A stretch of 64,000 bases of DNA from Eledone cirrhosa (Eukaryota), in contig OZ024745.1 in NCBI GenBank assembly GCA_964016885.1, forward strand, positions 73,904,001 to 73,968,000, read 5' to 3'. Under the pieces are notes generated by a model. It searched no databases. It was not told the origin of the DNA and saw nothing but the letters and a program-made list of their open reading frames with translations. Positions 10,247 to 63,855 of this stretch are shown here, one piece after another (the first letter of the stretch is position 1; each line of letters starts with the position of its first letter). The position numbers and the translations under genes were made by a program.

Positions 10247-10312
10247 TATTTTATTATACGTATTTCAAGGGCAACCAAGGCAAATTATGGTGCGCTTTCA
10301 TCAGATAAAATA
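10247..10312 (-). ncRNA. Type I hammerhead ribozyme, family D
   Basis: TATTTTAT-CTGATGA-AAGCGCACCA..TGGTTGCCCTT-GAAA-TACGTA-TA-ATAAAATA, with an 8-bp stem I. Confidence 0.8.
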
Positions 10313-12331: not shown

Positions 12332-13740
12332 ACCTATGATCGAACCAGTTAAACCATGTGAGCAGCCCACCTATGTTCGAACCAGTTAAACCATGTGAGC
12401 AGCCCACCTATGTTCGAACCAGTTAAACCATGTGAGCAGCCCACCTATGATCGAACCAGTTAAACCATGTGAGCAGCCCACCTATGATCGAACCAGTTAG
12501 ACCATGTGAGCAGCCCACCTATGATCGAACCAGTTAAACCATGTGAGCAGCCCACCTATGTTCGAACCAGTTAAACCATGTGAGCAGCCCACCTATGTTC
12601 GAACCAGTTAAACCATGTGAGCAGCCCACCTATGATCGAACCAGTTAAACCATGTGAGCAGCCCACCTATGATCGAACCAGTTAAACCATGTGAGCAGCC
12701 CACCTATGATCGAACCAGTTAAACCATGTGAGCAGCCCACCTATGTTCGAACCAGTTAAACCATGTGAGCAGCCCACCTATGTTCGAACCAGTTAAACCA
12801 TGTGAGCAGCCCACCTATGATCGAACCAGTTAAACCATGTGAGCAGCCCACCTATGTTCGAACCAGTTAAACCATGTGAGCAGCCCACCTATGTTCGAAC
12901 CAGTTAAACCATGTGAGCAGCCCACCTATGTTCGAACCAGTTAAACCATGTGAGCAGCCCACCTATGTTCGAACCAGTTAAACCATGTGAGCAGCCCACC
13001 TATGTTCGAACCAGTTAAACCATGTGAGCAGCCCACCTATGTTCGAACCAGTTAAACCATGTGAGCAGCCCACCTATGTTCGAACCAGTTAAACCATGTG
13101 AGCAGCCCACCTATGTTCGAACCAGTTAAACCATGTGAGCAGCCCACCTATGTTCGAACCAGTTAAACCATGTGAGCAGCCCACCTATGATCGAACCAGT
13201 TAGATCATGTGAGCAGCCCACCTATGTTCGAACCAGTTAAACCATGTGAGCAGCCCACCTATGTTCGAACCAGTTAGATCATGTGAGCAGCCCACCTATG
13301 ATCGAACCAGTTAAACCATGTGAGCAGCCCACCTATGTTCGAACCAGTTAAACCATGTGAGCAGCCCACCTATGATCGAACCAGTTAAACCATGTGAGCA
13401 GCCCACCTATGTTCGAACCAGTTAAACCATGTGAGCAGCCCACCTATGTTCGAACCAGTTAGATCATGTGAGCAGCCCACCTATGATCGAACCAGTTAAA
13501 CCATGTGAGCAGCCCACCTATGATCGAACCAGTTAAACCATGTGAGCAGCACACCTATGTTCGAACCAGTTAAACCATGTGAGCAGCCCACCTATGATCG
13601 AACCAGTTAAACCATGTGAGCAGCCCACCTATGATCGAACCAGTTAAACCATGTGAGCAGCCCACCTATGATCGAACCAGTTAGATCATGTGAGCAGCCC
13701 ACCTATGTTCGAACCAGTTAAACCATGTAAGCAGCCCGCC
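12332..13740 (+). repeat. Homogeneous 37-bp minisatellite, about 38 copies (CACCTATGWTCGAACCAGTTAAACCATGTGAGCAGCC)
   Basis: Contiguous units with no spacers. Variants are A/T at position 9 and AAACC/AGATC. Confidence 0.97.
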
Positions 13741-13767
13741 TTTTTTCGTTAACATTTTAAATCATCT

Positions 13768-37967: not shown

Positions 37968-38542
37968 GCCCCACAAACATATTGATAAATATTCACTATC
38001 CGACCCACATACACACACCCCGCTACCCCTACATACACAGCTGCCCGCATACATACACACACGACCCCATGTGGACGCATACATACGTACAAACACGGGT
38101 GGTGCCTGCCTCTATTGTTCGCATGCACCAACAACTCGTTAAGTTCCTATCCGGGAAAATTCAGCGCCGAAAAAGTGCAATTCCAGTGGTGCCTGCAAGC
38201 CCTGATGATCTCGGACTTGAGGTCAATCGAATTATGTTTGCAACGGACATCGCCCATGGAATATGCAGCCGAGTGTTGCACTATGCCCCAGTGCGGCTTG
38301 AAGTCCATGCTGCTGTCTTTTACCGTCCAGATTAAGTACACCTGTCTAGTGGAGTGTCTCTTAGTCCGGTCCTTGAACGAGTTCGTGTGGTTATACATCC
38401 TCGACTTATATATATGTACTGGAATTTCGTATTTCTAAAGAAATACGGTATGTTTATAAATAAACATTTAGAAAGCCGTGGCTATGCAAAGACACTGGCA
38501 GCTATCGCCACCAGGCGGTGTCCAACAGAAGCAAGACGGACA

Positions 38543-38586
38543 ATCGTCGATGCATTTCGAACTGAACTGGTTCTCATCAGGTCGAC
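38543..38586 (-). ncRNA. Minimal type I hammerhead ribozyme
   Basis: GTCGAC-CTGATGA-GAAC-CAGTTCA-GTTC-GAAA-TGCA-TC-GACGAT, AUC site. Confidence 0.88.
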
Positions 38587-38624
38587 CCGTTCCGCTCTTG
38601 CAACAGCTGCACTTTGAAAACAGG

Positions 38625-38688
38625 CGAGAATATATAGTTTTCTCGTCTGTGTAAATGAGGTGATTAATCTCATTTGCATATGAAGCTG
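38625..38688 (-). promoter_or_regulatory. Putative snRNA-type promoter block (octamer, PSE-like, TATA)
   Basis: 64 bp identical to 59007-59070: ATGCAAAT, TCACCTCATTTACA and TATATA, upstream of the HHR. Function is inferred. Confidence 0.5.
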
Positions 38689-38949
38689 TATAGCTGTATA
38701 GGTTGGCTCAACTTATAATACAATAGAAATAGAATTTAGCTTCGTATTAGAATTTCGTATTTTTTAAAGAAATACGGTATGTTTATAATTAGACACTTAG
38801 AAAGCCGTAGCTATGCAAAACACCGGCAGCTATTGCCACCTGGTGGTGTCCAGCAGAAGCAAGGAGGGAAATCGTCCTTTCTAAATGTTTATTTATAAAT
38901 TGTTGTAAAATCCCATTTTGCATACTTATTCTTCACTATATATATATAT

Positions 38950-39392
<443 letters not shown>

Positions 39393-59240: not shown

Positions 59241-59859
59241 TGTTTGAAGCGCAATTTTATTTCTTTTCTCTCTCACTCTCTCTCTCTATATATATATACA
59301 TATATATATACGTGTGTGTCTGTGTCTGTGTGTGTATCTGTGTGTGTGTGTGTGTGTGTGTATCTGAGTGAGTCTGTGTGGATTATTAGTGTGTATGTGC
59401 GTTTATATATACTGGTTCACCAACTTGAAACTCGATGCATAGGTAGGTCCTGTTAAGTATAGTATGTGGTGTTATACATTCGGTGTTATACTACGGTCGG
59501 TTTCCTTCATAAGCAGTGTGTTATATAATAATTGTTTCTACTTTAGGCACTAGGCCAGCAATTACCCAGTGCATTACTGGTACTTTATTTTAACGACCCT
59601 GTAATTCTTCTTGCTTCCATTTGTTGCGGCTCCCGCCATGCAAAAATCGTTCAATCTATCAGGATTATCCACCGTAAGTATCTTTAAATTAACGCTCACC
59701 ATATTCAGCAAACCTTGTATGCCGATTCTTCTATTTCTTATATAAGGACTATCAAGACTATACCGCTGCGCATCATCCTGTATTGCGCCCAGTCTTCTCA
59801 AGCGATCATCGAGTCTCCATACCCTCTCTTCTTTCCCGTGGTCCCACTACCGTAGTATA

Positions 59860-60452
59860 ATGAGGCATCCGTCAACCCCTGCCCTCTATCTTCCCTGCAC
59901 GCCGTCGACCCACTGCATCGTTGTGCATCACGATGCGCATCTCTGCCCTGTCAGCCGCAATTCATTCCCCGACCCTTTCCATTGCCTACCCGCCGTGATC
60001 GCTAAGGACTGCCACGGCTCAACATGCCGAATCCCTGCCACCGTCCACCCCTGCCCATTTCCATTGCCTACACTCCATGACAGCTCAAGACTTCCATGCC
60101 TGACCAAGCCGCATCCCTTCCACCTTCAACACCTGCCCTCTCCCTTCCCTGCACGCCGTCGTCCCACTGCATCGTCATGCCTCACCATGCCGTCTTACTG
60201 CCCTGTTGGCCACCATGCCCTCCCCTGCCCTCTCCCTTACCCGCACGCCTTGGTCCTTCACGAGTGCCATGGTTCACCATGCGGAATCCCTGCAACTGTC
60301 AATCCTGGCCATCTCGCTTCCCTGCACGCCGTCGAACCATCGAATCGTTATGCCTCACCATGCCGCATCCATGATCTGTCAGCCGCCATCCCCTCCTCAG
60401 CCCTTTATTTTGCCTGCCCGCCGTGCTCCTTCAAGACTGCCATGCCACCCAG
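59860..60452 (+). repeat. Degenerate C-rich tandem repeat (CCTGCACGCCGTCG...ATGCCTCACCATGCCG)
   Basis: The motif recurs near 59894, 60148 and 60321. Confidence 0.65.
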
Positions 60453-63400
60453 CCCCAAATAAAAAAACTGTCCAGCCCCCACCCCACCCCCAAATAAAAA
60501 AACGGACCCCCACCCATCCCCCAAATAAAAAACGGGCCCCCTCCATCCCACCCCCCAAATAAAATACGGATCCCACCCCCACCCCCAAATAAAAAACGGA
60601 CCCACAAATAAAAAACGGACTCCCCAAATAAAAAACGGATCCCCCCAAATAAAAACCGCATCCCACCACGCCCGCCCAAATAAATAACGTACCCCCCAAA
60701 ACGGACCCTCCCACCCCACCCCCAAATAAAAAACGGAGCCCCAAATAAAATACGGACACTCCCTAATAAAAAACGGATCCCCCTAAATGAAAGAACGGAC
60801 CCCTTACCCCAAAATATAAAACGGACCCCCAAATAAAAAACGTACACCCACCCCACCCCCAAATAAAAAAACGTACCCCCACCCCACCACCAAATAAAAA
60901 ACGGACCCCCAAATAAAAAAACGGATCCGCCCAAATAAACAACAGACCCCCACCCCCAAATAAAAAAACGACACCTCCACCCAAATAAAAAACGGACCCC
61001 CACCCCCAAATAAAAAACGGACACCCCAAATAAAGAAACGGACCACTCACACCCGAATAAAAAACGGACAACCCCCACCCCCAAATAAAAAACGGATCCC
61101 TCACCCTACCCCCAAAGAAAAAAACGTACCCCCAAATAAAAAAGGACCCCCACCCCACCTCCAAATAGAAAACGGACCCCCAAATAAAAAACCGGAGGCC
61201 CACCCCATCCCCAAATAAAAAAATTGACGACACCCCACCCCATACCCAAATGAAAAACGGGCCCCCAAATAAAAAACGGATCACCCATTGGAGGGATCCA
61301 TTTTTTATTTGGAGATATCCATTTTTTATTTGGGTGATTCATTTTTTTATCGGGGTATTCGTTTTTTATTGAGGGGTCTGTTTTTTATTTGAGTGTGGGG
61401 GTAAAACATGGATCCCCTCAATAAAAAACGGAATACCCCGATAAAAAAAAATGGAACACCCAAATAAAAAATGGATCACCCAAATAAAAAATGGATCCCT
61501 CCAAGTAAAAAATGGACCCCACCCAATAAAAAATGGATCCTCTCGATAAAAAACGGAATACCTCTATAAAAAAATGGATCACCCAAATAAAAAATGGATC
61601 CCTCCAATAAAAAAAATGGATCACCCAAATAAAAATGGATCACGCAAATAAAAAATGGATCACATGAATAAAAATTGGATCAACCAAATAAAAAATGGAT
61701 CACCCAAATAAAAAATGGATCCCTCCAAATAAAAAAACGGACCCCACCCAAAAAAACATGGATCCCCTCAATAAAAAACGGAATACCCCGATAAAAAAAA
61801 TGGATCACCCAAATAAAAAATGGATCACCCAATTAAAAAATGGATCACCCAAATAAAATATGGATCACCAAAATAAAAAATGGATCACCCAAATAAAAAA
61901 AAAGATCACTCAAATAAAAAACGGACCCCACCCCCATATAAAAAACAGGTCCGCCCCCCCCAAAACGTACGACCAAATAAAAAACGTACCCCCCACCCCA
62001 CCTCCAAATAGAAAACGGACCCCCAAATAAAAAACCGGACGCCCACCCCATCCCCAAATAAAAAAATGAACGACCCACAACCCCACACCCAAATGAAAAA
62101 CGGATCCCCCAAATAAAAAACGGACGCCCCCACACCCAAATAAAACACAGACCCTCCCATCCCCAAATAAAAAAACGGACCCCCCACACCCAAATAAAAA
62201 ACAGACCCTCCCATCCCCAAATAAAAAACGGATCCCCCAAATAAAAAACGGATCCCCAAATAAAAAACGGACACCCCACTCCCAAATGAATAACGGACCC
62301 CCAATGAAAAACGTACCCCCCCAATAAAAAACGGACCACCTCTGCCCACCCATAAATAAAAACGGACCCACACGACCCACCCAAATAAAAAAAACGGTCC
62401 ACCCCTCTCTACCCATAAATAAAAAAACGTTTCTTTTTTGAGGATGGGGGATCCGTTTTTTTATTTGGAGGGATCCGTTTTTTATTTGTGGAGGGGAGTC
62501 CGTTTTTTATTTGGGGTTGGGGTGGGGTCTGATTTTTATTTTCGGGGATCCGTTTTTTATTTGGGGGGATCCGTTTATCATTTGGAGGTCGGTTTTTTAT
62601 TTGGCGATGGGGTGTCCGTTTTTCATTTGGGTGTGGGATGGGTGTGATCCATTTTTTTATTTTGGGATGGGGTGGGGTGTCCGGATTTTGGGGGTCCGTT
62701 TTTTATTTATGGGTGGGGTGGTGCGTTTTTTATTTTGGGGGGTTCCGTTTTTTATTTGGTGGTGGGCTGTCCATTTTTTTTTTGGGGGGGGGGGGGGGTA
62801 CGTATTTTATTTGGGTGTGTGGTGGGGTGGTTCGTTTTTTATTTGGGGGTGTCCGTTTTTTATTTTGGGGTGGGGTGGGGGGTTCGTTTTTATTTGGGGG
62901 TGGGGTGGGGGCATCCATTCTTTTCATTTGGGGTTGAGGAGGTCCGTTTTTTATTTAGGGGGATCCGTTTTTTATTTGGGGGTCCGTTTTTTATTTGGGG
63001 GTACGATTTTATTTGGGGAGGGTGGGGGATCCGGTTTTTATTTGGGGGACCGTTTTTTATTTGGTGGTGGGGGTCCGTTTATTATTTGGAGTGGGTTGGG
63101 GGGTACGTATTTTATTTGGGGGGTTCCGTTTTTTATTTTACGTAACCCCCACCCTCCCCAAATAAAAAACCATTCGCCCAAAACAAAAAACGGACCCTCA
63201 ACGCCCCACACCCCAAATAAAAAACGGACACCCAAATAAAAAACGGACCCCCACCCCACCCCAAATAAAAAAACGGATCACCCCACCCCACCCCAAAGAA
63301 AAAACGTACCCCCCAAATAAAATACGGACTCTCCAAATAAAAAACGGAAGCCTCCACACCCTAATAAAAAACAGACCCTCCCATGCCCAAATAAAAAAAC

Positions 63401-63855
63401 CGACCCCCCCACCCCACCCCCAAATAAAAACGGACACCCCAAATAAAAAACGGACACCCCACACCCAAATAAAAAACAGACCCTCCCATCCCCAAATAAA
63501 AAACGGATCCCCCAATTAAAAAACTGACCTCCAAATGAAAAACGGACCCCCAATAAAAAAACGAACCCCCCAAATAAAAAAACGGACCACCCCTCTCCAC
63601 CCATAAAGAAAAAACGGACCCACACCACCCACCCGCCCAAATAAAGAAACGGAACACCAAATAAAAAACGTATCACCCCAAATAGCAAACGGACGCCCCC
63701 ACATCCAAAGAAAAAAACGTACCCCCAATTAAAAAATGGACCCCCAAATATAAAACGGATTCCTCCAAATAAAAAACGGGTCCCCCACACTCAAATAAAA
63801 AAACACACCCTCCCATCCCCAAATAAAAAACGGACACCCCATCACACCCCCAAAT
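60453..63855. repeat. About 3.4-kb variable minisatellite CCCAAATAAAAAACGGA(C)n with inverted blocks
   Basis: Orientation flips at about 61287-61402 and 62430-63140. An AAATGGATCACCC sub-array spans 61460-61910. Confidence 0.95.

Follow-up and report, generated by a model that had tools for sequence, protein, structure and literature searches.

A hammerhead-bearing non-coding repeat family in Eledone cirrhosa and the position of its 5' ends relative to the predicted ribozyme cut

Described hammerhead elements and the Eledone family

In R2 elements with a 5' HDV-like ribozyme, the ribozyme cut sets the 5' end of the RNA that is copied. The question addressed here is whether hammerhead cleavage defines the ends of the RNAs copied by the enzymes of Penelope-like elements (PLEs). 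Circles have been proposed as the template of these enzymes (PMC7229834, PMC4209133); in an in vitro study, ribozyme-dead RNA inserted normally and uncleaved RNA was the dominant substrate (PMC11167929). Minimal hammerheads are described as cleaving slowly and as dimers, with low activity (PMC4209133). Tails, inversions, truncation and a microsatellite bias are given as features of Penelope-like insertions (PMC8557442, PMC11167929), and the use of PLE machinery by retrozymes has been argued from co-occurrence and sequence trees (bioRxiv 10.64898/2026.07.22.740005).

The repeat family analyzed here is present in a window of 64,000 nucleotides of the Eledone cirrhosa genome (assembly GCA_964016885.1, contig OZ024745.1, positions 73,904,001 to 73,968,000; coordinates below are those of the window). 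In the genome of 3.0 Gb, where the query drew 3,353 candidates, 40 of which were scored, the family has at least 1,880 matches to an 18-base anchor. Its cut-to-cut monomers measure 323-342 nt (n = 7), and 108 genomic matches span more than one unit. Like the metazoan non-LTR retrozymes (Cervera and de la Pena 2020, PMC7229834; Li et al., bioRxiv 10.64898/2026.07.22.740005), it has a non-coding unit of 323-342 nt with a GC content under 45% (39.6% in the monomer described below), one type I hammerhead per unit, partial tandems and thousands of copies, and like the mussel representatives it comprises two subfamilies (A and B). It thus shows the features by which non-LTR retrozymes are recognized in sequence, namely a type I hammerhead with stems I and II within a non-coding, low-GC tandem unit of 150-450 nt. 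Unlike metazoan non-LTR retrozymes as portrayed there, the family has a minimal palindromic stem III, as PLE hammerheads do, and in contrast to their long arrays its copies are dispersed and mostly of sub-unit to 1.5-unit length.

The family resembles endonuclease-bearing PLEs and their pseudo-LTRs (PMC8557442, PMC4209133, PMC11167929) in its minimal hammerhead and in its tail, whose two 3' end sites are separated by about 40 nt. Shared as well are targets at microsatellites or in AT-rich DNA, truncation at the 5' end, inverted 5' copies, the absence of a clear target-site duplication and a ribozyme that is read through. The two adjacent 3' end sites correspond to the PLE tail of 30-40 nt. An autonomous PLE was considered and rejected, as no open reading frame (ORF) with PLE reverse transcriptase and GIY-YIG endonuclease was found over the copy at 38416-38899 or on the shared flanks of the family loci examined; the family is classed as non-autonomous. 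Among 87 direct 5' junctions, neither a shared coding sequence adjoining the repeat nor a reverse transcriptase or GIY-YIG ORF on any shared flank was found, and the family loci examined for flanks include no autonomous partner sharing the repeat.

The hammerhead varies between copies in a structured manner. Among 226 family motifs, pair 5 of stem I is C-G in 133 and T-A in 45, while pairs 1-3 of stem II are A-T, G-C and G-C in one subfamily versus G-C, A-T and A-T in the other. These swaps between subfamilies A and B are compensatory, but they represent few events inherited by many copies. The repeat is best classified as a new member of the non-LTR retrozymes, a family whose self-cleavage and circles are predictions. 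No description of it was found in the literature covered, which leaves most subscription journals outside; the supplements of one preprint (bioRxiv 10.64898/2026.07.22.740005) might list related families.

Hammerhead and junctions of the copy at 38416-38899

The copy under study and its putative ribozyme, together with a second family copy that served as internal control, consist of the following parts.

38542..38588 (-), predicted minimal type I hammerhead, called from core sequence and covariation over 226 family motifs
38588-38581 (-), stem I, 5' strand of the hammerhead
38580-38574 (-), CUGAUGA core of the hammerhead (CTGATGA in DNA)
38573-38559 (-), stem II of the hammerhead, 15 nt
38558-38555 (-), GAAA of the hammerhead
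38554-38551 (-), stem III of the hammerhead, palindromic UGCA (TGCA in DNA)
38550-38549 (-), UC (TC in DNA), directly before the predicted cut 38549/38548
38548-38542 (-), stem I, 3' strand of the hammerhead
38744..38876 (-), unit 2, monomer +1 to +133; the sense insertion has its 5' end here, right at the predicted start of the cleavage product
38549..38743 (-), rest of the 328-nt monomer, closing with the 5' half of the hammerhead; genome matches at 80-88%
38416..38548 (-), unit 1, the incomplete repeat on the 3' side (+1 to about +133), then ATATATATA
38877..38899 (+), inverted fragment of 23 bp, head-to-head at the 5' end; 23/23 reverse complement of 38453-38475
58794..59260 (+), second family copy (subfamily B), right end approximate; internal control

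On the plus strand, the sequence reads ATCGTC at 38543-38548, followed by GATGCATTTC. The hammerhead at 38542-38588 has an A-A mismatch at pair 2 of stem I, its minimum-energy fold is not a hammerhead (z +0.89), and Rfam models do not match it at the gathering threshold or at E<=10; the assignment is based on the core sequence and the covariation in the family. The copy at 58794-59260 folds as a hammerhead (z -0.92) and has its second hammerhead at 59115-59146. Two consecutive units with complete hammerheads are present in the family (locus L305), and the copy at 38416-38899 has one complete motif, that with the mismatched stem I. Its monomer of 328 nt is shorter than those of subfamily A (340-342 nt), and unit 1, which is 86.6% identical to unit 2 over an alignment of 134 nt, terminates at the shorter of the two 3' end sites of the family. 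No target-site duplication was seen at the copy, and no ORF of 120 aa lies over 38416-38899 except for 23 bases of a flanking frame.

The original prediction placed the start of the insertion exactly at the predicted ribozyme cut, and this is what the junction displays: unit 2 stops at 38876, the base equivalent to +1, with no microhomology on either side, and the break at 38876/38877 is exact because 38877 fits neither continuation. It is not an assembly artefact, since a contig of 95 nt from run X1 (38835-38929; the run possibly derives from the assembly's own sample) bridges it with zero differences. An inverted copy at 38877-38899 had also been proposed, with a length of about 22 bp and a source at 38455-38475; the inversion holds, whereas its extent is corrected to 23 bp and its source to 38453-38475. 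The fragment fits unit 2 at 20/23 positions. A special cause for its better fit to unit 1 was considered and is unneeded, as unit 1 and the fragment share common family letters.

The copy at 38416-38899 is quite probably a non-LTR retrozyme, a non-coding repeat with a hammerhead, of which it retains 1.4 units after truncation at the 5' end, and which a PLE reverse transcriptase would have inserted from RNA with likely intact ribozyme sites, its 5' end falling on the cut by chance, a reading to which this probability applies as a whole.

Insertion signature and template

The 3' ends and inversions were read in 173 anchors, three unresolved ones and two segmental duplicates having been dropped. 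The 3' ends form two clusters about 40 nt apart, at 120-150 (73 of 173) and 160-190 (72 of 173). The 3' junctions lie at microsatellites in 146 of 173 cases, a raw count with no shuffled control in a microsatellite-rich genome, and half of the family copies (86/173) have inverted 5' junctions. From this analysis, the family likely spread via Penelope-like retrotransposon enzymes, and the pattern of tail, inversion and target offers integration-level support for the use of PLE machinery by animal retrozymes.

In the likely route that this suggests, a PLE protein acting in trans would nick AT-rich or microsatellite DNA, and cDNA synthesis would begin at an internal position of the RNA, near +133 or +172. 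It would then cross the first and usually also the second ribozyme site, a read-through that is visible at the DNA level, and would end at a scattered position, half of the junctions being closed with an inverted fragment. We infer the enzyme and the order of events; the distributions of the ends are observed. As reverse transcription crossed an intact ribozyme site, the template was continuous across the cut, and it was likely an uncleaved multimer or a circular, religated RNA, two forms that the present data do not separate. The normal insertion of ribozyme-dead RNA and the dominance of unprocessed RNA in vitro (PMC11167929), and the low cleavage activity of minimal hammerheads (PMC4209133), agree with such a continuous template.

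It is possible but somewhat doubtful that the template was, more specifically, a single unit closed covalently into a circle, on which reverse transcription rolled; this would be compatible with the preferred reading. Two successive sites are read through, and mussel retrozymes of 350-390 nt are reported to accumulate as circles (PMC7229834). On a circle, termination is expected to rise after one lap because the reverse transcriptase must displace its own cDNA. The 5' ends are scattered, with a termination rate of about 0.5% per base within the first unit that increases to about 1.5% further on, and a step model fitted to 190 copies places the change at a cDNA length of 324 (320-340), close to one unit, with rates of 0.46% per base before it and 1.44% after it. 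Against this, a smooth Weibull curve with fewer parameters reaches a log-likelihood of -1087.7 versus -1088.7 for the step, the fit deteriorates when the step is fixed at 342 (-1093.2) and is equally good when the step is placed in element coordinates (-1088.6); the termination step at one unit stays a lead since the Weibull curve fits equally well. The units of one copy have a median identity of 0.93 versus 0.89 between copies, a difference confounded by subfamily, and sister units are mutually best-matching in just 9 of 33 copies. We deem it unlikely that the family is a fossil record of rolling reverse transcription by a Penelope-type enzyme on a circle of 323-342 nt, in which synthesis would start at the tail sites, cross the religated junction unhindered and terminate three times as often after one lap, a few per cent of the long copies, including that at 38416-38899, stemming from circles reopened at the ribozyme.

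Starts of the unit-length copies cluster near -165 and -210, and such ends occur with either 3' class, in AT-rich sequence. Five copies of near unit length (L034, L040, L077, L084 and L113) begin about where they end (+172) and have TA repeats on their flanks, a pattern that may reflect either a lap on a circle or AT microhomology.

5' ends around the predicted cut

Had the 5' ends piled up at position 1.1, the genome itself would have given direct evidence of cleaved templates; no histogram of 5' ends relative to the cut was found in the literature covered, to which most subscription journals do not belong. None of the 29 other top-scoring loci starts at +1. Baseline termination is 0.47% per base (86 ends over 18,170 bases at risk), and the ends were compared with the predicted cut in three designs.

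The all-copy test used patterns requiring post-cut sequence without the upstream core. These retrieved 3 of 353 anchors in subfamily A and 9 of 1,605 in subfamily B, the latter being five true ends and four internal deletions. The resulting 8 ends among 1,958 anchors form no spike over the 6.8 expected (P=0.36), an expectation whose capture rates presuppose a base composition of 32/18% and are approximate where the flanks are TA repeats. Internal deletions in L126, L137, L163 and L276, near the locus centres, were left out of the 5' end counts; some of the hammerhead is lost in each, and the sequence resumes at +1 or beside it, in most cases through a microhomology of 1-3 bases.

For the local histogram, 69 of the 1,880 anchors lacked the core AA and the 68 distinct ones were read, 48 being kept by hand as true 5' ends and 20 dropped as internal indels or duplications. 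No spike is present at +1/-1 (4 of 48 versus 6.0 expected); more ends lie at +9 (7), +7 (8) and +2 (6) than at +1 (3). Ends are found 3' of the cut in 38 of 48 cases and 5' of it in 10 (P=0.0008, post hoc).

The long-copy census covered the 108 matches spanning more than one unit, minus the copy at 38416-38899 and one segmental duplicate, classed by hand. Ends fall at +15 to +2 in 24 copies, at +1/-1 in 5, at -2 to -10 in 3 and at -11 to -43 in 29, while 45 pass. At the second ribozyme, 77 of 82 long copies read through, and the excess at +1/-1 (5/82 versus 2.4 expected) is not significant (P=0.09), its best estimate being 3% of the copies at risk with a 95% upper bound of about 11%. When 30 of these 108 matches were checked by script, 25 assignments agreed, and one of the five +1/-1 ends would shift to +8. 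A 'wall' at the second ribozyme had been suggested by small early samples (7 of 11 long anchors ending within +9 to -16, and 11 of 13 ends at -301 to -335) and was refuted by the larger targeted ones; among 53 long anchors taken from the first of the 178 matches with a more-than-unit arrangement, 24 reach 5' of +1, one of the 53 touching its locus edge.

The three designs thus show no significant 5'-end spike at the cleavage site, the R2-like pattern that the original prediction implied; the family differs from R2 elements in that its 5' ends lack a pile-up at the cut and 77 of 82 long copies pass it. That prediction had proposed a template with a 5' end made by self-cleavage and a ribozyme left uncleaved or religated one unit downstream, as in a multimeric or circle-derived RNA. 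The second part stands with the read-through of the long copies, whereas the first finds no significant spike in the suggested histogram of 5' breakpoints, and the control copy at 58794-59260 starts 30 nt upstream of its own first predicted cut (58823/58824). Since the family copies show no significant pile-up there, the exact junction at 38876/38877 likely coincides with the cleavage site by chance.

A minority route from linear RNAs in which one ribozyme has cleaved while the following one stays whole, with the reverse transcriptase running off at the 5'-OH end and a few bases sometimes lost, could have made the copy at 38416-38899 as one of its products, which we find quite unlikely. Partial cleavage is plausible given the slow, dimer-dependent cleavage of minimal hammerheads (PMC4209133). 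In addition, the junction at 38876/38877 is exact and free of microhomology, clean +1 ends also occur in L111, L123, L189, L270 and L273, and the long copies have about twice the expected number of +1/-1 ends; yet this excess is insignificant in every design, +9, +7 and +2 each collect more ends than +1, and one of the five +1/-1 ends (L349/L294), that scored +8 by the script, is a stem I fold-back with microhomology. That ends are commoner immediately 3' of the cut than immediately 5' of it likewise amounts to a trough in the core (3 ends at -2 to -10, P=0.003, post hoc), because long copies terminate 3' of the cut (1.8% per nt) about as often as between -11 and -43 (1.5% per nt). The asymmetry would also arise if the reverse transcriptase stalled where stem I begins at its base, or if the product folded back through stem I complementarity. 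Such a fold-back at the hairpin of the ribozyme is seen in L148, L161, L185 and L294, near the locus centres, where inverted junctions swap strand via the two complementary sides of stem I.

It is highly improbable that the tandem was made at the DNA level by local duplication or repair, with a junction unrelated to any RNA end: the identity between units is merely 86.6% and some family copies lie within segmental duplications (L079-L081), but the 3' end coincides with an end site used throughout the family and precedes a TA run, the 5' end bears the family-typical inverted fragment, and the same more-than-unit arrangement recurs in 178 genomic matches. The single junction at 38876/38877 weighs little, most family copies say the opposite of what cleaved templates would leave, and the family provides a usable test bed.

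Several other observations concern the family and further repeats of the window. In the family locus L302 (about 1500-2100), two adjacent units are 100% identical over 95 compared bases and have private changes in common, as after either a recent duplication or the copying of one diverged template. A perfect-looking palindrome at 39013-39288, with 136-nt arms that are 97% complementary and a 4-nt spacer, is related to 26366-26620, its element adjoins the 5' end of family copy L128, and it could be either MITE-like or an inverted PLE remnant. At least two other minimal hammerhead families, with a TATA/TACGTA stem III, have core starts at 10304, 10408, 10863, 26714, 26783, 31819, 54720 and 57375, several of them in inverted pairs. 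Between the inverted hammerheads at 54720 and 57375 lies an endonuclease-like PLE fragment (55482-56084, +) with a weak GIY-YIG match (E 7.5e-4, below the cut-off); a second such fragment at 23681-24235 (+) has no GIY-YIG match. A 37-bp array of 38 copies at 97% occupies 12332-13748, and a long degenerate satellite with a period of 19-21 bp extends over 59976-63800.
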